Virus record (IMG/VR): IMGVR_UViG_3300012352_000657
Location: 1-27,154 of that record
Length of the DNA stretch: 27,154 nucleotides
Origin: a virus
Lineage: Duplodnaviria; Caudoviricetes
Reading direction: 5' to 3' (one strand)
Of this stretch, positions 12,963-27,152 are shown piece by piece. Position 1 is the stretch's first letter. Each line of letters opens with the position of its first letter. Below the pieces are notes generated by a model. It did no database searches and had not been told where the DNA came from. It saw only the letters and a list, made by a program, of their open reading frames with translations. The position numbers were made by a program, and so were the translations under genes.

Positions 12963-12991
12963 TGTACAGCGAGCTATTCATGTGATATAAT
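12962..12991 (+). promoter_or_regulatory. Early-type promoter
   Basis: ATGTACAGCGAG...TGTGATATAAT. Confidence 0.85.
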
Positions 12992-12997
12992 AGTTAC

Positions 12998-13165
12998 ATG
13001 AATATAGAAACAGTCGCTGCATTTGTTGACACATTAACGATAAACCACCTGTTAATAGCAGGTGGTATTTTTATCTTTTTATTTTTCCATGCTGTAATAC
13101 TTAGATTAGCATTTTACCTAAGCACCTTTATTCTAATATTGTGGCTTATAAGCAAGTATTATTAA
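12998..13165 (+). CDS. Small membrane protein, 55 aa, probably leaderless (not in ORF track)
   Basis: MNIETVAAFVDTLTINHLLIAGGIFIFLFFHAVILRLAFYLSTFILILWLISKYY*. ATG lies 7 nt after the -10. Confidence 0.6.
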   Translation: MNIETVAAFVDTLTINHLLIAGGIFIFLFFHAVILRLAFYLSTFILILWLISKYY

Positions 13166-14362: not shown

Positions 14363-14377
14363 TCGTATATATAATAT
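14363..14377 (+). promoter_or_regulatory. Second promoter class (-10 only, late-like), copy 1
   Basis: TCGTATATATAATAT, identical at 15716-15730. Confidence 0.55.
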
Positions 14378-14489: not shown

Positions 14490-14528
14490 AACCCTGGAAC
14501 CTAAAAAGTTTCAGGGTTTTTTGTTTTT
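14490..14528 (+). terminator. Rho-independent terminator immediately upstream of the tRNA cluster
   Basis: AACCCTGGAAC-ctaaaaa-GTTTCAGGGTT followed by TTTTGTTTTT. Confidence 0.85.
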
Positions 14529-14530
14529 AT

Positions 14531-14612
14531 GCCTCAGTGGCGCAAACAAATGGAAGACGCGGCTGTTCAAGAGACAGTTAGGTTACGGGTTCGAATCCCG
14601 TCTGAGGCACCA
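14531..14612 (+). tRNA. Atypical tRNA-Leu-like gene (anticodon AAG by stem register, CAA in an alternative register)
   Basis: Acceptor GCCTCAG/CTGAGGC with ACCA. T arm ACGGG-TTCGAAT-CCCGT. Anticodon arm GCTGT-TCAAGAG-ACAGT. Confidence 0.75.
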
Positions 14613-14617
14613 AAATT

Positions 14618-14647
14618 ATGTACAACGAGCGATAGGTGTGATATAAT
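14618..14647 (+). promoter_or_regulatory. Early-type promoter upstream of tRNA-Trp
   Basis: ATGTACAACGAG...TGTGATATAAT. Confidence 0.85.
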
Positions 14648-14658
14648 ATTAGTTCAGG

Positions 14659-14733
14659 TTCTCGATAGTGTTAACGGTAGCACGTTGGTCTCCAAAACCA
14701 AAGGTTGCGGTTCGAATCCGTATCGGGATGCCA
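14659..14733 (+). tRNA. tRNA-Trp(CCA)
   Basis: TTGGT-CT CCA AA-ACCAA, GGTTCGAATCC, 3' GCCA. Confidence 0.9.
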
Positions 14734-14743
14734 ATATATAATT

Positions 14744-14773
14744 GTTTACAACGAGTCATTGTTGTGATATAAT
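14744..14773 (+). promoter_or_regulatory. Early-type promoter upstream of tRNA-Asp
   Basis: GTTTACAACGAG...TGTGATATAAT. Confidence 0.85.
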
Positions 14774-14786
14774 AGTATTACATTGT

Positions 14787-14863
14787 GGAGTGGTAGTTCA
14801 GTTGGTTAGAATATCGGCCTGTCACGCCGAGGGTCGCGGGTTCGAGTCCCGTCTACTCCGCCA
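14787..14863 (+). tRNA. tRNA-Asp(GTC)
   Basis: GGAGTGG/CTACTCC acceptor, TCGGC-CT GTC AC-GCCGA, CCA end. Confidence 0.96.
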
Positions 14864-14886
14864 AAGATTTTTAACGTGAGGATAAT

Positions 14887-15075
14887 ATGGCAGCTGTAAA
14901 GAAAAAAGGTAAATCACCAACACATACAAAAACTGGTAAAGTTCGTTTGTATGGTTTAAACGTAGCAGCATTAAATAAAATGTTAGAGAGTGAAAGTAAG
15001 CCTAAGGTAAAAGCAAAGATTAGAAATGCGATTGTGCGTAGAACACTTACGCAACAGGCACCAGTACTTTTATAA
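14887..15075 (+). CDS. Small basic hypothetical protein
   Basis: SD GAGGA. Lys-rich, TKTGKVRL.GLN motif. Confidence 0.7.
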   Translation: MAAVKKKGKSPTHTKTGKVRLYGLNVAALNKMLESESKPKVKAKIRNAIVRRTLTQQAPVLL

Positions 15076-15087
15076 TATAACAGTAAT

Positions 15088-15163
15088 TCCTCGATAGCTC
15101 AGTCGGTAGAGCGCCGGACTGTTAATCCGTAGGTCCCTGGTTCGAGCCCAGGTCGAGGAGCCA
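15088..15163 (+). tRNA. tRNA-Asn(GTT)
   Basis: TCCTCGA/TCGAGGA acceptor, CCGGA-CT GTT AA-TCCGT, CCA end. Confidence 0.96.
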
Positions 15164-15343
15164 TAATTGAGAATGTGAGCGAAAGAAATAGGAATCCCAA
15201 CTGTTAGGGGAGATAACTATCCTAGCAATATCGCATCCATCATCGGAGATAGTCTATCATCCCAAAGGTAGAATGAAAGCGTGAGGTCTAGGAGATGGGT
15301 TTATAAAGCCATCTTAAACACATAACAGTATTCTCAATTATGG
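15161..15343 (+). ncRNA. Candidate structured ncRNA inside the tRNA array
   Basis: Perfect 14-bp terminal inverted repeat CCATAATTGAGAAT/ATTCTCAATTATGG enclosing several hairpins. No convincing ORF. Confidence 0.55.
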
Positions 15344-15348
15344 TATTT

Positions 15349-15424
15349 GCCCCTTTAGCTCATCTGGTAGAGCAACTGATTTGTAATCAGTAGGTGGTCT
15401 GTTCGAGTCGGACAAGGGGCACCA
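15349..15424 (+). tRNA. tRNA-Thr(TGT)
   Basis: GCCCCTT/AAGGGGC acceptor, ACTGA-TT TGT AA-TCAGT, ACCA end. Confidence 0.95.
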
Positions 15425-15431
15425 AGTATTA

Positions 15432-15508
15432 GGGCCTATAGCTCAGTTGGTTAGAGCAGAGGACTCATAATCCTTTGGTCGTAGGTTCGAGTCCTACTGG
15501 GCCCACCA
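15432..15508 (+). tRNA. tRNA with CAT anticodon, most likely tRNA-Ile2 (lysidine)
   Basis: GGGCCTATAGCTCAG start typical of Ile2. GAGGA-CT CAT AA-TCCTT. Lacks initiator features. Confidence 0.88.
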
Positions 15509-15537: not shown

Positions 15538-15687
15538 ATGAATGAAGGCGGAAAAGGTTGTAAGCCACGTCCGTTTAGCGTAACTCAAGAAGAGTACGAT
15601 AACAGATGGGATAGTATATTCAACAAAAACAAAGAAGATAAAGAAGAAACTGTAGAAGAAACTAAAGAAGAAAATTCTAAAGAGTAA
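15538..15687 (+). CDS. Small phage hypothetical protein (GGKG..PRP family)
   Basis: SD GAGGA. MNEGGKGCKPRPFSVTQEEYDNRWDSIF. Confidence 0.75.
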   Translation: MNEGGKGCKPRPFSVTQEEYDNRWDSIFNKNKEDKEETVEETKEENSKE

Positions 15688-15692
15688 ATAAA

Positions 15693-15714
15693 TTGAGTCC
15701 TTTCGAGGTCTCAA
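15693..15714 (+). other. UUCG hairpin at the end of the tRNA-region transcript
   Basis: TTGAGTCCT-TTCG-AGGTCTCAA (one mismatch). Confidence 0.5.
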
Positions 15715-15715
15715 G

Positions 15716-15730
15716 TCGTATATATAATAT
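15716..15730 (+). promoter_or_regulatory. Second promoter class, copy 2
   Basis: TCGTATATATAATAT, identical to 14363-14377. Confidence 0.55.
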
Positions 15731-15735
15731 AAACA

Positions 15736-15909
15736 GTAAGTAGTAATACTTACACGCAAAAGGTCTCAAAGAAGACCACAATGAATTTGGGACACACCCG
15801 AATCGGTAGCGGCGACGTATCACCGTTAGTCTTGACATTTGTCAAGCAATAGAAGGCGGTGAGCGCTTGCCAGTACTACTGACATGTGTTCCTCGCTATT
15901 TTTAAATTC
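15736..15909 (+). ncRNA. Candidate structured 5' leader or cis-regulatory RNA of the accessory operon
   Basis: GNRA hairpin GTAAGTA-GTAA-TACTTAC plus nested stems GGGACACA/TGTGTTCC, GGTAGCG/CGCTTGCC, TCACCGTT/GGCGGTGA and CTTGAC/GTCAAG. Confidence 0.6.
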
Positions 15910-15939
15910 CTAATAAAAAGAAGAAAAAGGAAAAATAAA

Positions 15940-16500
15940 ATGGCTGAATATACAAGTTTCGTTATGGATCCATTCTACGCACTATCACGTGAAGTAGAAG
16001 CAACAAAGACCAAAGTAGCAGACAGCGTCTTTGAGAACTATAAACTCCAAGTAGCACAAACAAACGACATCAATAATCGCGCTATGCAAGTTGCATTGCA
16101 TGACTCAACTGCTTTGGCAAATCTAAAGCAGCAAACCGCTGACGCCGTTGTACAGACTATGTTGGCCGCCGCACGCACTGATGCAGCAGTAGGCGCAACA
16201 GCAGGTCTTACACAACGTATGTTGATGGAAGAATCATATCGCACTCGTGATTTGATTAATGGTTTGAACACTCAGAACTTAAACACAGCATTGATCAACC
16301 AAAACACAGCCTTAGTTGGTGGTGGTCTTGGTTACAATCAACTTGGTTTAGCTTATGGTGGCTTAAATTCTGCTTACCAATCTGCTAACTTGAGCAGCGC
16401 TGTTAATGCAATCGGTAGTCAAGTTTCTGGTCAACGTTTGGTTAATACTGGTACATACACCGGTAATACACAAACTCAAACACCTACTAACGTTCTTTAA
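15940..16500 (+). CDS. Ala/Gln/Asn-rich hypothetical protein, paralog 1
   Basis: SD AAGGA before ATG 15940. Aligns end to end with 16512..17066. Confidence 0.85.
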   Translation: MAEYTSFVMDPFYALSREVEATKTKVADSVFENYKLQVAQTNDINNRAMQVALHDSTALANLKQQTADAVVQTMLAAARTDAAVGATAGLTQRMLMEESYRTRDLINGLNTQNLNTALINQNTALVGGGLGYNQLGLAYGGLNSAYQSANLSSAVNAIGSQVSGQRLVNTGTYTGNTQTQTPTNVL

Positions 16501-16511
16501 GGAGATAAATC

Positions 16512-17066
16512 ATGGCTGACTCATTCATGATGGATCCATTCTACGCTCTTTCAAGAGAGATTGAATCTACAAAGACTAAAGTAGCTGACTCTGTATTCGA
16601 AAACTACAAATTGTCAGTAGCTCAAACTAATGATATTAACAACCGTGCTATGCAAGTAGCGTTACACGACACTGCAGCATTTGCTGATCTTAAGCAACAA
16701 ATTGCTAATAGTGTTGCTGAAACAATGTTGGCCGCAGCTCGTACCGATGCTGCTATTGGTCAAACTGCTTCATTGACACAGCGTATGTTGATGGAAGAAT
16801 CAGCACGTACACGCGAGTTGATTAATGGTTTGAATACACAAAACTTGAACACTGCTCTTATTAATCAAAACACAGCCTTAGTTGGTGGTGGTCTTGGTTA
16901 TCAAGGTCTAGGTTTAGCTTATGGTGGTTTGAACACTGCAGTTCAAACTGCAAATCTTGCTAGTGCAACTAATGCTCTTCAAAGTCAAATCCAAGATCAA
17001 AGTTTAGTTAATACAGGTACAATGTCAGGTAGCGAACAATCTCAAACTCCAACTAACGTAGTTTAA
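16512..17066 (+). CDS. Ala/Gln/Asn-rich hypothetical protein, paralog 2
   Basis: SD AAGGAG. Shared blocks MDPFYALSRE, AQTNDINNRAMQVALHD and LINGLNTQNLNTALINQNTALVGGGLGY. Confidence 0.85.
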   Translation: MADSFMMDPFYALSREIESTKTKVADSVFENYKLSVAQTNDINNRAMQVALHDTAAFADLKQQIANSVAETMLAAARTDAAIGQTASLTQRMLMEESARTRELINGLNTQNLNTALINQNTALVGGGLGYQGLGLAYGGLNTAVQTANLASATNALQSQIQDQSLVNTGTMSGSEQSQTPTNVV

Positions 17067-17076
17067 GGAGAATGAT

Positions 17077-17274
17077 ATGTTTGCAAGATTTGGTGGATAC
17101 GGCCGTCCGTATCTAGCAGCAGGCATTGGCTATCCGTATTACGGTGGCTATGGTTACGGTAACCCATACTGTGGATTCGGCTACGGTGGCTGCGGCTACG
17201 GTGGCTATGGTGGTTATGGTGGTTATGGTGGCTGGGGTCGTGGTTACGGTTATGGATATGGATACCCATATTAA
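17077..17274 (+). CDS. Gly/Tyr-rich low-complexity peptide
   Basis: SD AAGGAG. About 27 Gly and 18 Tyr in 65 aa, GGY repeats. Confidence 0.8.
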   Translation: MFARFGGYGRPYLAAGIGYPYYGGYGYGNPYCGFGYGGCGYGGYGGYGGYGGWGRGYGYGYGYPY

Positions 17275-17284
17275 TTAATAGGTA

Positions 17285-17316
17285 AGCGAATCTACCTATT
17301 AATGGGTGGGTTCGCT
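17285..17316 (+). other. Intercistronic hairpin
   Basis: AGCGAATCTACCTA-ttaa-TGGGTGGGTTCGCT, 14 bp with G-U pairs, no U tail. Confidence 0.65.
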
Positions 17317-17338
17317 CCTAATACAAGGAGTAAAAGAA

Positions 17339-17530
17339 ATGATTTATAGTCCAATATACTTTAGAAGTTATGGATTTCCATACTTTAATCCATCGTTTGG
17401 ATTTGGATTTACTGGATATGGAATTGGCGTTAACGCAATTGGTAGTCAATTTTCAAACCAAAGTTTAGTTAACACTGGAACATATACAGGTAGTTCACAA
17501 ATTCAATCACCAACTAATATTTGGGGATGA
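17339..17530 (+). CDS. Aromatic/Gly-rich 63-aa protein sharing the C-terminal motif of the two paralogs
   Basis: SD AAGGAG before ATG 17339. VNAIGSQFSNQSLVNTGTYTGSSQIQSPTN. Confidence 0.8.
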   Translation: MIYSPIYFRSYGFPYFNPSFGFGFTGYGIGVNAIGSQFSNQSLVNTGTYTGSSQIQSPTNIWG

Positions 17531-17534
17531 TTAA

Positions 17535-18368
17535 ATGTATAAGAGAATAGTAGTACTTGACGAAAATCAATTTGCTGAATGTGAAATAAAGACAAGTGGT
17601 TCATCAATTGAAAACGAAGAAGATATTATATCTGTAGACGTTCCATTGATGATTCGCTTACTTGAGTACGCTAGAGAAGACGCTAAGGCTGACGTAGATC
17701 TACATGTTGTAGCTACTAAGCTAGTTGACATGTGCGAAGAGTGTGAAGAGGCTTTAACTATGGAAGACTATGACGCTATTGTTGGCAAAGAAAGCCCTGC
17801 AGCTATCACCGAAGAATCTATGTTGTTTAGAATGGATTCTAGAACGTGGTGGTCAAGGTTTGCTTGGAGCCTGTTGAATTATTCAATAGCGTTAAACAGC
17901 GAAATTGATGGAAAAGAGCAAGCAGAACAGAGAATTTATTCTCACGCTAAGAAAATTGGTGGGTTGGTTGCTCCATACTATGGTGACGAAACAGGAAGAG
18001 TTTTTGGTGAGGCATTATCGACATTTGGGAAAATTGGCGTTACTGTTATGCAAGAACTTAAAGAAGGCACTCCTATTAATGGTACTAAAGCTAGATGGGA
18101 TCTCAACATTGAAGAGATTTCAACAATGTTGTCTACCGTTAATCCAGAGTATTGGCCAAAAGAACCTGTTAAGTCATATTTCAATATGTTAGTAACTTTC
18201 TGGCTTGATTCAATTAAAGCACGTGATGCTAGAGATTGGGAAGCTAATGAAGTAGCTATTGATAACATTGATAAACTTATTACAACTGGAACTGATGAAA
18301 TGCCTAGCTTAGCTGATGTATTTAGCGCTGGTATCATTGGAAAATTTCCAAAAGAGTTTGTAGGATAA
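17535..18368 (+). CDS. Two-domain protein: phage DVPL.IRLLEYAREDA domain plus a helical-bundle domain
   Basis: C-terminal pattern R..W, PYYG, RW..N..EI...L...NP.YW, AD.F..GI...FP..F recalls an uncharacterised family from spore-forming Firmicutes. Confidence 0.65.
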   Translation: MYKRIVVLDENQFAECEIKTSGSSIENEEDIISVDVPLMIRLLEYAREDAKADVDLHVVATKLVDMCEECEEALTMEDYDAIVGKESPAAITEESMLFRMDSRTWWSRFAWSLLNYSIALNSEIDGKEQAEQRIYSHAKKIGGLVAPYYGDETGRVFGEALSTFGKIGVTVMQELKEGTPINGTKARWDLNIEEISTMLSTVNPEYWPKEPVKSYFNMLVTFWLDSIKARDARDWEANEVAIDNIDKLITTGTDEMPSLADVFSAGIIGKFPKEFVG

Positions 18369-18372
18369 ACTT

Positions 18373-18618
18373 ATGTTAGTAAGTAAATCATCATCAGAAA
18401 ATATAGAGCATGAAAGTTTACCAGCTCATGTAGAACTGTGTTCTCAAAGAGTTGCTGTTCTCAATAAACGAATACTTGATATTGAGAATAGTCATATTAA
18501 ACTTAATGAAGAATTAGATTCGTTGCGTCTGTTTATTATAAAATCAATTAGTACTGCTACAGCAGTTTTAACAACTATTGTATCTTTAACTATTATTATA
18601 TTAGATAGGATGAATTGA
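18373..18618 (+). CDS. Coiled-coil protein with C-terminal transmembrane helix
   Basis: SLPAHVELCSQR motif and a hydrophobic C-terminus. Confidence 0.7.
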   Translation: MLVSKSSSENIEHESLPAHVELCSQRVAVLNKRILDIENSHIKLNEELDSLRLFIIKSISTATAVLTTIVSLTIIILDRMN

Positions 18619-18619
18619 T

Positions 18620-18979
18620 ATGACTAATCAATTTGATAGTTCTATATTAAATTTAGCTAGACAACAAATATCAGAAGAATACATTAAAAGTAAATCTGAA
18701 GATCTTGCTAATTGGTTAATAGAGTGTGATAGAGTGTGGAAAGAAGAAGGCACAATGCTTCCATATCCTACGTATTCGTTTTATCCAAGTGAAGAAGATA
18801 TTATTGCTAGAGCTAAATTATTAAGTGGCACTTCTATTGAACAAGCAATTGAAGAGCCAAATGAAGAATTAGTTGAAGCTAAAGAAAAAGTTGGTGTAAA
18901 TGAAGAAATTAGTATTATAAAGGAGACGATAGTAAATCCTATTGTCACCTATAAGAAAAAGAGAAAGTGGATTAAATAA
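18620..18979 (+). CDS. Phage hypothetical protein (YP.EEDII.RAK.L motif)
   Basis: Tightly packed ORF with a motif common in T4-like phages. Confidence 0.7.
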   Translation: MTNQFDSSILNLARQQISEEYIKSKSEDLANWLIECDRVWKEEGTMLPYPTYSFYPSEEDIIARAKLLSGTSIEQAIEEPNEELVEAKEKVGVNEEISIIKETIVNPIVTYKKKRKWIK

Positions 18980-19470
18980 TGTTTCCTTTCTTATTTCAAC
19001 CAATACGCAAACTTAGAAGATTGCCAAGAGTATTACCAAGGCGGCCAATCTATCCAGTATGTTCATTTAATTCTATAGGTGGTGCTGGTGATGATATTAT
19101 TATTACAGGTGGTGTAGGACCTGCTGGACCTCCGGGCCCGGCAGGACCGACTGGTCCACAGGGTCCTGTGGGTCCACAAGGCCCAGCTGGAAGTTTGAAT
19201 ATTCCCACAACCACAGTTGAATCTAATTACCTTGTCACAGCTGATGACTATTTTATCGGCGTTGTTACAAGCGCACCGTTTCTTATCACGCTACCGTTAT
19301 CTGTAGAAGGTACAGTTTATATCGTTAAAGACGTGCTAGGGACAGCAGCAACAAATCCAATCACCATCACAAACACAGCTTTGATTGATGGTTCCATTAA
19401 TGCAACAATTAATGTCAATTACGGATCCATAACATTTGTGTTTAGTGATGACGTATGGAACATTGTATAA
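18979..19470 (+). CDS. Short collagen-like fibre protein with C-terminal beta domain
   Basis: Eight G-P-X triplets, then DYFIGV..ITLP..G.VYIVKD..IDG..YGSITFV..W. Confidence 0.8.
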
Positions 19471-19482
19471 AAGGAAAAATAT

Positions 19483-19698
19483 ATGTACAAAAGATTAGAT
19501 GTATACCCAAATGGTGCACCAATACCAGCATCACTACCAGACAGTTATCAACCAGCTGGATATGGTAATGCTCCAAAAGGTCAAAATTGTTTGACTTGCA
19601 AAGCGTTCAATTTAGACACTAGAATTTGCTCTAAGTGGAATGCCCAAGTCAAATATAGATGGTGGTGCATTGCGTGGCAACCCCGCTCAAGCGTATAA
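19483..19698 (+). CDS. HiPIP-like small Cys protein
   Basis: YQ...GQNCLTC-x9-C-x12-C (V..RWWCIAW) resembles HiPIP ligand spacing. Confidence 0.6.
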   Translation: MYKRLDVYPNGAPIPASLPDSYQPAGYGNAPKGQNCLTCKAFNLDTRICSKWNAQVKYRWWCIAWQPRSSV

Positions 19699-19719
19699 CA
19701 AAAACAAAGGGAAGACAAA

Positions 19720-20121
19720 ATGTCATACACAAATAATTCACTGTCAATAATTGGCGGTACAGGAATAACAGTAACACCAACTACAAACACTGGTGCTACG
19801 ACCATCACACTAGACGTTGTCGCAGGCCCAGATATTCTGGCTGTGCGCGTTGCTACAACAACACCTGTTGCAGTATTAACAACTAATGAAGTAGTTAGTG
19901 TTGAAGTTCCAGGTCCAGTAGCAGTTGCTGTAACATTACCAACAGGTGTAACAGGACAGGTATTCTATATCAAAGATGGATTGGGATTAGCTGCGCCAGC
20001 TACACCTATTACTATTACTCCAGCAGCTGGTACAATCGATGGCGCAGCAACAGCAACAATCAATGCTCCATACGGTTCATTAACATTCGTATACTCTGGC
20101 ACAGAGTGGAAACTATTATAA
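19720..20121 (+). CDS. Thr/Val/Ala-rich beta-domain protein, paralog of the 18979 C-domain
   Basis: VTLP.G.TGQVFYIKD..G.A...ITI..IDG..YGSLTFVYSGTEW. Confidence 0.8.
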   Translation: MSYTNNSLSIIGGTGITVTPTTNTGATTITLDVVAGPDILAVRVATTTPVAVLTTNEVVSVEVPGPVAVAVTLPTGVTGQVFYIKDGLGLAAPATPITITPAAGTIDGAATATINAPYGSLTFVYSGTEWKLL

Positions 20122-20124
20122 TCT

Positions 20125-20607
20125 ATGGCTTATAACAGACAACCAAATGTGGTGTTAGCTGGCAGAGGATTGCTACAAAATCCTTTGCCAACAACATTGG
20201 CTCCAGCTGGTATACTGCCCGTTTCTTTAGATGCTAATATAGCCACTACAACTTCTTTAGGTGTTGTTCAAATTGGTAGTGGAATTAATGTAAACGCAAA
20301 TGGTGTTATTTCAGTTAATAATAGTGGAAGCGGTTTAATTAACGTTACACTTACATCTGTAAACTATAACGCTTTACAAACAGATTACTATATTGGTTGC
20401 ACTAACGAGAAAGATGATAAGATAACAATTACATTACCGCTTGGTGTTACTGGTAAAGTTTACATTATCAAGAATCAAGATAATGGAGGTTCAGTTAAAG
20501 TAACTGGTTCAGCAGGTCAAAAAATAGATAACTTTACTACATTAAATTTAAGTAATGAATCGGGCATTATGCTGGTATTTGATGGAACCCGCTGGAACGT
20601 AATTTAA
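20125..20607 (+). CDS. Fibre-like protein, third copy of the beta domain
   Basis: ATTTSLGVVQIGSGINV..NGVIS fibre repeat plus DYYIG..ITLP.G..GKVYIIK..ID..LVFDGTRW. Confidence 0.8.
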   Translation: MAYNRQPNVVLAGRGLLQNPLPTTLAPAGILPVSLDANIATTTSLGVVQIGSGINVNANGVISVNNSGSGLINVTLTSVNYNALQTDYYIGCTNEKDDKITITLPLGVTGKVYIIKNQDNGGSVKVTGSAGQKIDNFTTLNLSNESGIMLVFDGTRWNVI

Positions 20608-25652: not shown

Positions 25653-27152
25653 TTATTTAGATGTTGCTCTATATGTACCATCCCAATTAGATGGCTTACC
25701 TTCAGATAATCTTTCTTTCATAGCATCATAGTAATCACTCATTTCAGGTGTAGCATTAATGCATAATGGAATAAGTGTTAACGCTTTCTTCCAATCACCT
25801 GCATAATATAACTCTAAGAAAGATCTATGCATTTCAGTTTCATGTGCTAAGGTGTAAATCTTAACACCTTCTTTTTTACCTTTAACTGCAATGCAATCTA
25901 ATTCAAATACATCGTATTCATCTTTAACTTGTTCGGCAGTTAGACTACCTAATACCATTTTAACTCCGTAGGGCTTGGACTGTCCTTCCAATCGACTAGC
26001 CAGATTGACCGAATCTCCGAGGCAAGTATAGTCAAAGCGTTGGTCTGAACCCATATTTCCAACAACAACGGTGCCTGTATTAATACCAAGGCCCATGCCA
26101 AATGGAGGAATACCTTCTTTAGTAATTTCATTATTAAATTCTTCTAAACTATTCATCATCTGCAATGCTGTGCGCACTGCCATCTTGGCATGTTGTGGTT
26201 CATCTAGTGGTGCATTCCAAAATGCCATTTGTGCATCACCAATATACTTATCTAGGGTACCATTATTTTCAATAATCTTTGCTGTCATCGCTGTCATATA
26301 GCGATTCATAATTTTAGTTAGGCCTTGTACGTCTTTGCCATAGTGCTCTGAAATTGTAGTAAATCCTCGAACATCTGTAAACATAATCGAGAGTTCTCTT
26401 GAATCACCACCGAGCTGTAACAACTCTGGATTTCGTTGAAGTTTTTCAACCAATGCTGGGCTGAGATATGTTCCAAATTGTTTTTTGATTTGGAGCTTTT
26501 GGCGCAGTTCAACAAGGAATTTGACAACGTATCCGTGGAAACTAACGAGCGTGAGGGTGAGTATAGGGAATACAGCATCAAGTAAATAGCTTGATCGAAC
26601 AAATAATTCAATACCGGCATAGTACGTAACTCCTGATAAAAGTAATGCAAATACATAACCATGCGTAAATCTCGTTAGAATTAAAGTGATAATACAAATT
26701 GCAATGATGTATAGTAACTCTGCACCTAACGCCCAATCAGGTCTTGATATATTCTTACCTTTAATTAACGTATCCAAGATTGCTGCTTGAAGATAATGCG
26801 GATACACTCCACCTGTTGCAGTAGCTACTGGATTGTTAAGTCCCTTTGCAGTAAGACCAACAATAACAATACCACCATTAAAATCTTTTGGTAACTTTGC
26901 AGCAGAGTGTTCAATTGGTTGACTTGACCAATCAATCCAAACTCTACCAACTTCATCTGTTTCAATCTTTCTAAACTTTGGAATGCGTACTGCTTCAATT
27001 AAACCTTCATTAACTTTTACTTGGAAACTTGGATCGCCACTTGCAACTCTTAATGTTTCAAGCGTGATAGAAGGATAGAGTTGTCCATTTGATTGTACAA
27101 CCATTGGTACTCGTCTGGTGACGCCATCGATTTCTGGCAATGTGTTAACAAC
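25653..27152 (-). CDS. Membrane-bound class III adenylate cyclase with CHASE2-type sensor domain (N-terminus outside window)
   Basis: DGVTRR.P sensor segment, 3 TM helices, FTDVRGFT, DKYIGDA, DYT.LGD.VNLASRLE. Frame stays open to the window edge. Confidence 0.92.
   Translation of the reverse strand, partial: VVNTLPEIDGVTRRVPMVVQSNGQLYPSITLETLRVASGDPSFQVKVNEGLIEAVRIPKFRKIETDEVGRVWIDWSSQPIEHSAAKLPKDFNGGIVIVGLTAKGLNNPVATATGGVYPHYLQAAILDTLIKGKNISRPDWALGAELLYIIAICIITLILTRFTHGYVFALLLSGVTYYAGIELFVRSSYLLDAVFPILTLTLVSFHGYVVKFLVELRQKLQIKKQFGTYLSPALVEKLQRNPELLQLGGDSRELSIMFTDVRGFTTISEHYGKDVQGLTKIMNRYMTAMTAKIIENNGTLDKYIGDAQMAFWNAPLDEPQHAKMAVRTALQMMNSLEEFNNEITKEGIPPFGMGLGINTGTVVVGNMGSDQRFDYTCLGDSVNLASRLEGQSKPYGVKMVLGSLTAEQVKDEYDVFELDCIAVKGKKEGVKIYTLAHETEMHRSFLELYYAGDWKKALTLIPLCINATPEMSDYYDAMKERLSEGKPSNWDGTYRATSK

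Follow-up and report, generated by a model that had tools for sequence, protein, structure and literature searches.

A conserved leader RNA upstream of one gene family in uncultured T4-like phages, with a predicted two-state relay over the translation start

Described phage leaders and the locus

The 5′ untranslated region of the maturation gene of MS2, a levivirus, comprises several hairpins and can adopt two exclusive folds; in the account of PMC4615214, the start stays accessible as long as an earlier hairpin persists, whereas in the final fold the Shine-Dalgarno sequence (SD) is paired by an upstream strand. In T4, inhibitory hairpins at the starts of genes e, soc, 49 and I-TevI hide the SD and/or AUG, and a late promoter within the 5′ strand of the structure allows late transcripts to escape, while genes 32 and 43 have autogenous translational operators, i.e., repressor sites on replication genes (PMC3014915). 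According to that 2010 review, T4 had yielded neither a functionally characterized riboswitch nor a trans-acting regulatory RNA characterized in this way, and the phage riboswitches treated in PMC9004378 are copies of known bacterial classes. Fremin et al. 2023 used the intergenic regions of IMG/VR to predict structured RNAs that precede phage genes (8,495 DNA-virus models; PMC10690425).

The leader described here lies on a 27,154-nucleotide stretch of DNA (IMG/VR record IMGVR_UViG_3300012352_000657; hereafter the window), a fragment of a T4-like phage with nrdA/B, RNase H-type exonuclease and phoH genes. It is located between a small ORF (15538-15687) and the gene for a 186-residue protein (P0001), and 5′ of it are six tRNA genes (14531-15508), the sixth being a tRNA-like gene (14531-14609) that scored 39.7 bits with Rfam and was negative with ARAGORN. 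The small ORF and a hairpin (together 15538-15714, between tRNA-Met and the leader) are missing from a near-identical X1 contig, in which 15512 is joined to 15713, a difference that reads as a recent insertion or loss. A strong terminator-like hairpin (14490-14518) stands just before the tRNA cluster. Further upstream, a perfect 11-bp palindrome surrounds an extended -10-like element (12975-13002) and is followed by two further hairpins (13024-13066); a 174-nt stretch of this region folds at z -4.6.

A sequence-only reading of positions 15736-15909 had described them as a non-coding, relatively GC-rich RNA, and both properties hold: the GC content is 44% versus 36% for the window, and the only ORF of at least 45 residues that starts inside on the + strand begins at a GTG (15886) and merely extends the next gene. 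An upstream ORF common to the homologs was sought by eye and none was kept. For the + strand the folding energy is -55.6 kcal/mol (z -4.44), with none of 200 shuffles as good, versus z -2.21 and 3 of 200 shuffles for the - strand; among 91 windows of 174 nt in the record the leader fold ranks second, and three of the 91 reach z <= -4. Together with the G-U pairs, this strand asymmetry favors the proposed function as + strand RNA and argues against a DNA-level element. A test for self-cleavage had been suggested at the outset and a conserved core does exist, but the leader matches no Rfam ribozyme family and its alignment shows no conserved catalytic-type junction; a self-cleaving ribozyme or a DNA-level element is a highly improbable explanation. 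The conserved element reaches beyond 15909 to about 15952, that is, through the start codon of the next gene (Table 1).

A box resembling the T4 late promoter, given as TATAAATA in PMC3014915, is found 5′ of P1 in all nine homologs. L001 and L281 share TATATATA with the window, at an unchanged position, and the remaining six have TATAAATA or a near variant of it, which suggests that a late promoter lies upstream of the leader. The 15-mer around the leader's box is repeated at 14363-14377, followed by a 26-codon ORF.

Table 1. Features of the leader and of the genes that follow it; ON and OFF denote the two predicted folds.
Feature	Position	Strand	Remarks
Late-promoter-like box TATATATA	15719..15726	+	inferred promoter
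5′ hairpin, GNRA loop	15736..15753	+	window-specific, outside the conserved motif
P1 hairpin (GGTCT/AGACC), A-rich loop	15762..15777	+	four of five pairs change on both sides
P2 hairpin	15783..15804	+	15785-15791 with 15797-15803, plus 15783:15804
Strand a, 5′ arm of P3 (ON)	15807..15815	+	OFF: single-stranded or loosely paired (constrained folds)
Strand b, shared	15820..15828	+	pairs with a (P3, ON) or c (OFF)
P4 hairpin (CTTGAC/GTCAAG)	15831..15846	+	variable length, present in ON and OFF folds
Strand c	15855..15866	+	pairs with b (OFF) or d (P5, ON)
P5 apical hairpin (CAGT/ACTG)	15871..15881	+	in ON fold; variable insert, up to about 80 nt in L343/L344
Strand d: P5 3′ arm, U-rich tract and anti-SD	15885..15911	+	OFF: pairs SD, AUG and first codons
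A-rich spacer, loop of start-site helix	15912..15927	+	17-31 nt, 58-83% A in 8/9 homologs
Strand e	15928..15952	+	SD AGGA 15928-15931, AUG 15940-15942, first codons
First cassette gene, 186 aa (P0001)	15940..16500	+	family unknown; 774 homologs
Paralog of first gene	16512..17066	+	79.6% identical; directly after first gene
Rest of cassette	16512..20607	+	paralog, Gly/Tyr-rich peptides, 277-aa unknown protein, collagen-like and fibre-like proteins

Distribution of the leader and its conserved hairpins

Among 41 viral loci with a P0001 relative that were examined, only L001 had the same leader; pattern scans brought in L042, L271 and L281/L284, and searches with divergent proteins brought in L303, L304, L343 and L344. 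A covariance model built on five sequences, with L001, L303, L343 and L344 outside the training set, was run on 96 sources and matched ten at E <= 6.4e-6, the next match having an E of 0.48. These ten matches represent nine distinct sequences from uncultured T4-like phages, nine being the total and two of them 90% alike, with cores that are 46-90% identical. Each is located directly 5′ of the same gene family on the same strand, in one copy per record (in the window and in all four records counted), and because of this constant position cis-regulation, as first proposed, is the best reading of the leader. The upstream neighbors differ (tRNAs, pmoC, Ro60, a GIY-YIG gene and a homospermidine-synthase-like gene), and the leader therefore travels with the downstream gene; within the available flanking DNA, tRNA genes are near only some of the loci.

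The alternative that the leader is an independent small RNA, or an RNA part of a structure built by the cassette, would account for its own promoter-like box, for the 84% identity of its core between the window and L042 even though their first proteins barely align, and for its being kept in L042 where tRNA genes follow a single shortened gene. However, no match occurs anywhere away from a gene start, and in a relative one contig from X2 (an RNA run, though the contig may be DNA) spans the core into the gene. Moreover, the start of the very gene that follows is complementary to the 3′ strand of the leader, and because of this an RNA component of the module, as the sequence-only reading had also entertained, has little support; we consider an independent RNA very unlikely.

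Several carrier phages have distinctive surroundings. At L348:901-1830 (the same leader as L042, and intact) the single first gene lacks the C-terminal tail of its family and is directly followed by the tRNA genes. In another carrier pmoC/amoC lies directly upstream of the leader (L344:2730-3500), which hints at a methane- or ammonia-oxidizing host, and a third has a gene for a Ro60/TROVE protein (L304:1417-3027). A Y-RNA idea was dropped, the Ro60 gene being near L304 only. A relationship to T4 rnaC/rnaD was likewise rejected, as model R1 scored at best 5.7 bits on the T4 tRNA region, which is noise only.

Loose DNA patterns returned 119, 107 and 16 loci, mostly chance matches with no new homolog, while one further DNA pattern gave one new homolog among eight loci and a metagenome pattern gave eight loci containing one new variant, in two copies. 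In GTDB genomes there were no matches to the leader pattern and one protein locus, which had a short leader; among cultured phages neither the leader nor the first-gene protein was matched. Scans with Rfam 15 found only tRNAs in the window at the gathering score, only tRNAs in six more loci, and no credible match at E <= 10 for the window (including the leader itself) or for the L302 and L304 leaders, so that the leader falls outside Rfam. No sequencing run contained half of the leader's words; X1 (probably DNA) covers the leader and hardly the gene, and contigs of this kind cannot show transcript starts, ends or levels. No printed description of the leader was found in the literature searched, although one of the models of Fremin et al. 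2023 (PMC10690425) may correspond to it. We conclude that the leader is a real and, as far as this search reaches, undescribed phage RNA family.

The eight complementary pairs listed in the sequence-only reading are all present in the window, with arms starting at 15736/15747 (GTAAGTA/TACTTAC), 15762/15773 (GGTCT/AGACC), 15783/15904 (GAATTT/AAATTC), 15789/15885 (GGGACACA/TGTGTTCC), 15805/15864 (GGTAGCG/CGCTTGCC), 15820/15855 (TCACCGTT/GGCGGTGA), 15831/15841 (CTTGAC/GTCAAG) and 15871/15878 (CAGT/ACTG). The single nested domain into which most of them had been drawn did not hold up. The minimum-energy fold of 15736-15909 contains only five of the eight stems as written, GAATTT/AAATTC, GGTAGCG/CGCTTGCC and CAGT/ACTG being missing from it, and the drawing overlooked P2, P3, P5 and the start-site helix. 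The GNRA hairpin does form in the window's fold but is absent from all eight other homologs, and in one 99%-identical X1 contig the loop G at 15743 is replaced by A. What we took to be a resemblance to the c-di-GMP-I riboswitch, a GNRA-capped first hairpin, was rejected because of this absence and of the lack of any match at E <= 10. The outer stems of the nested domain are also not conserved among the homologs: GGGACACA/TGTGTTCC has a probability of 0.58 and is found in the window only, where it competes with P2, and there too P2 prevails once 30 coding bases are added to the fold. In the eight homologs other than the window P2 forms with a local probability of 0.74-1.00, and it replaces the long-range GGGACACA stem.

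Covariation among the homologs, a check proposed along with the original description, is present in P1-P4. In an unfitted alignment of five sequences, in which 96% of the cells are paired, both-side changes occur in 8 of 26 pairs, a result equaled in none of 500 shuffles; in the model-fitted alignment of nine sequences, which leans towards structure, 15 of 26 pairs do so. The signal comes mostly from P1, P2 and P4. P2 is paired in 100% of cells (both-side changes in 2/8 pairs unfitted and 4/8 model-fitted), and the basal pairs of P4 show such changes in 2/5 and 4/5, respectively. P3 is 90.8% paired with 3/8 pairs changing on both sides in the model-fitted alignment, mainly owing to L303, and its region is near-invariant in six homologs. 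By the alignment, P1-P4 form a chain of hairpins without a closing junction.

Two predicted folds of the leader

Five strands of the conserved element, a to e, can be paired in two exclusive ways. In the predicted ON fold a pairs with b and c with d, leaving e open, whereas in the predicted OFF fold b pairs with c and d with e, so that d would lie over the SD and start. The b:c helix is the TCACCGTT/GGCGGTGA stem of the sequence-only reading, whose structure is a mixture of parts of these two exclusive folds with window-only stems. Each of a:b, b:c and c:d can form in eight of the nine homologs; RNAalifold chooses b:c. The b:c duplex has a predicted stability of -10.5 to -15.6 kcal/mol in 8/8 homologs, and the c:d duplex of -14 to -22 kcal/mol in 7/8 (-8.9 in L304), with a probability of c:d given ON of at least 0.97 in 7/8. 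Strand c was chosen by motif, which biases the shuffle test of the strand duplexes.

The window can form 20 d:e pairs (15885-15891:15946-15952, 15895-15902:15937-15944 and 15907-15911:15928-15932), a duplex as stable being found in 5 of 1000 shuffles. Over the eight homologs the counts are 5, 140, 26, 24, 80, 7, 13 and 12 of 1000, the duplex being unremarkable in L001 (140) and L281 (80), and 945 in L303. Strand d pairs with the SD in 8/9 homologs and with the AUG or next codons in 7/9, and the partner bases vary as the gene starts vary. When b:c rather than a:b is imposed on the fold, opening the region from -16 to +12 around the AUG is predicted to cost an additional 2.4-5.6 kcal/mol in 8/8 homologs. 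Shuffling the middle stretch removes this difference in 6/7 tested (0-1 of 20 shuffles), L042 failing the control (7/20), and the accessibility of the SD alone, without coding bases, hardly differs between the states. In equilibrium folding of the growing transcript P3 forms first in most homologs, and b:c then leads in all eight once c appears.

On this modeling we favor, with moderate confidence, the interpretation of the leader as a two-state translational relay switch. A static structured leader is an unlikely competitor: one fold, P1-P5, would protect the 5′ end or serve as a simple protein operator, b:c would arise incidentally from the similarity of two strands, and all that the start helix would do is damp translation. 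It is consistent with the covariation, which is confined to P1-P4. The b:c helix is 82% paired, no better than column shuffles (232/500), and carries no covariation signal, although it can be argued that a strand shared by two helices cannot easily covary. The static leader also fits the predicted default state, which is ON in L042, L271 and L281, as against OFF in the window, L001, L304, L343 and L344, where the open ON state is predicted to be 10-14 kcal/mol uphill. It leaves unexplained, however, why c stays complementary to b while its partner in P5 varies, and why opening the start is predicted to be costlier when b:c is formed, in all eight homologs. The ninth homolog, L303, bears on it in both directions: P1-P4 are retained without the relay, as a static leader would have it, but the joint disappearance of b:c, P5, the anti-SD and the start helix is not accounted for. 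The sequence of P3 in L303 is changed wholesale, as expected, in this one case, once the constraint of the relay is lifted.

The same strands could be read with reversed logic as a transcription attenuator, in which P5 and the U-rich tract would terminate transcription, b:c would act as antiterminator, and P3, as anti-antiterminator, would be the OFF element. The strand order is compatible, and a U-rich tail follows P5 in the window, L001, L042, L271 and L281. L304 has no such tail, though, and in L343/L344 the tail is broken and P5 surrounds about 80 nt, so that the terminator reading fits 5/8 homologs and the translational one 8/8; in addition, the longest U run is five, a terminator scan of the window made no call at the site, and the U tract is explained by its complementarity to the A-rich bases that precede the AUG. 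For the tail and the scan result the intrinsic-terminator class was rejected, and attenuation in general appears improbable.

L343/L344 were at one point interpreted as a short form whose SD is in strand c; this was abandoned, as the family protein starts 123 nt further on, at a site with its own A-rich spacer and SD. There is also an upstream in-frame AUG in the P5 region of these two homologs, which could possibly be used as a start.

If the relay switch operates as modeled, P3 (a:b) would form first during transcription; as c emerges, b:c would take over, and d, thus released, would close the start site. With P1-P3 stabilized by some factor, b would be kept off c, allowing P5 to form and leaving the start open. 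We infer that the switch is probably held ON by a bound protein. P1 and P2 lie outside the relay and are nonetheless conserved, including in L303; as the chain also lacks a closing junction, we suspect that the 5′ hairpins form a platform for protein binding and not a pocket for a small molecule. No candidate RNA-binding protein for the leader was identified. Given that switching occurs, a protein is, tentatively, the foremost candidate trigger, and a folding-time window alone, like that of MS2, is the next most likely, if a rather doubtful one; a small molecule is unlikely and an RNA or tRNA very unlikely.

By description, not by sequence, the leader's mode of action would be closest to those of the maturation leader of MS2 and the start-site hairpins of T4. 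It shares with the former the multi-hairpin build and the two exclusive folds, but MS2 is an RNA phage whose RNA is made by a replicase and in which one strand is sequestered directly (PMC4615214), whereas here, in a DNA phage, five strands form a relay and the inhibitory strand is just 5′ of the SD and covers the AUG region too. With T4 e, soc and 49-type hairpins it has in common the T4-like phage, a late-type promoter, and an SD and/or AUG in a helix (PMC3014915); here, unlike there, the box is upstream of the whole structure, and escape would therefore need refolding. The operators of T4 genes 32 and 43 are similar in being structured leaders read by a phage protein (putative here), though in T4 binding represses (PMC3014915) and here the proposed binding would activate.

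A likeness to T-boxes (PMC7583486) is superficial. The leader shares the stem chain, in which the 3′ arm of P3 bears a hexamer resembling the F-box and is followed by a stem of variable form and a switch strand rich in purines, but not the Stem I motifs described there (specifier, K-turn, T-loop): P1 is a 5-bp hairpin, and there is no Rfam match. In T-boxes a UGGN bulge pairs with the tRNA 3′ end (PMC7583486), whereas strand c reads CGG in 7/9 homologs and UGG only in L304, and is absent in L303. A T-box-like pseudoknot between the P3 loop and bases after P3 was rejected, as it is broken in L042 and absent in L303.

The gene cassette and the LuxR-type regulator

The first gene of the cassette gave no significant Pfam, PHROG or NCBIfam family. 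Among the genes that follow, the collagen match has an E of 0.0013, below cut-off, the PHROG tail-fibre and baseplate matches are weak, and a 71-residue Cys-rich protein (19483-19698) has a faint match to a HiPIP-type iron oxidase model (E 0.067).

Comparison of 103 loci, reduced to 71 by removing near-duplicates, revealed that a LuxR-type gene is absent from all 19 distinct cassettes with a long structured leader (nine of this family, nine of a second and one of a third; three with under 1 kb upstream) and present in 43 of the 52 others (two without upstream DNA), directly upstream in 35. It was also not found in five partial leader-bearing records that are 12-24% complete. The exclusion may follow phage lineage. 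On a quick tree of 59 first proteins, which leaves aside L344 and loci without a clear start, the leader occurs at three or more separate positions, of which two fall among cassettes headed by the LuxR-type gene, and this scatter indicates that leader and gene have been recombined. The LuxR-type protein carries a GerE-type HTH and is similar to regulators of the NarL/CsgD type. A c-di-GMP-binding motif of VpsT-type regulators is absent from all five LuxR-type proteins examined. In one group of LuxR-headed cassettes (L002-L038), in the region about 60-130 nt ahead of the first gene, the leaders are short and stand behind a (C/T/G)TAAGTA or TTAACTA box; AGTACT/AATACT-like sites, repeated between the regulator gene and this promoter, are probably the operator of the LuxR-type regulator.

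The same gene family is preceded elsewhere by other leaders. A second, unrelated one of about 240 nt (L316:3590-3844, and in L313, L321, L323, L327, L330, L334, L337 and L347) shows both-side changes in 12 of 69 predicted pairs over eight sequences and combines a near-invariant stem-loop core at its 5′ end with a long stem, the 5′ strand of which can instead fold into a local hairpin; the two loci scanned had no Rfam match, and it is a candidate motif of its own. A third, possibly a fourth, long hairpin-rich leader is found at L006:5790-5990 and L040:4020-4220, both directly after a tRNA cluster, and at L016:5110-5300.

The mutual exclusion of leader and NarL/CsgD-like regulator is one of the points in favor of a new small-molecule riboswitch class, a sub-case of the relay switch and counted within it, in which P1-P4 would be the aptamer and the relay the expression platform. 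The near-invariance of the P3 region in six homologs, the completeness of the platform-like relay and the reports of phage riboswitches of known class (PMC9004378) agree with it. On the other hand, the P1-P4 chain lacks a closing junction, the conserved bases are largely accounted for by double pairing, Rfam has no match, and no metabolic gene suggests a ligand; we rate this class as rather improbable. A CHASE2 and adenylate/guanylate cyclase gene does occur in the window (25653-27140, - strand), beside GH19 lysozyme and PAAR genes, but in none of the five partial relative records (12-24% complete), which gives no support to cAMP, one of the ligands named in the sequence-only reading. A wider version also seems quite unlikely: P1-P4 would be the sensor of a riboswitch class native to large T4-like phages and read a host signal late in infection, the relay would decide translation of the cassette, a portable promoter-plus-leader unit would replace the LuxR-type regulator, and other lineages would use the second, unrelated RNA family.

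The leader provides a phage-only RNA family with an explicit two-state model, for which natural variants, one of them without the relay, act as controls. If the switching is true, a widespread cassette of large freshwater phages would be made conditionally, and the trigger would indicate the purpose of the cassette. The either-or pattern of leader and LuxR-type gene would represent RNA and protein regulators replacing each other in phage genomes.
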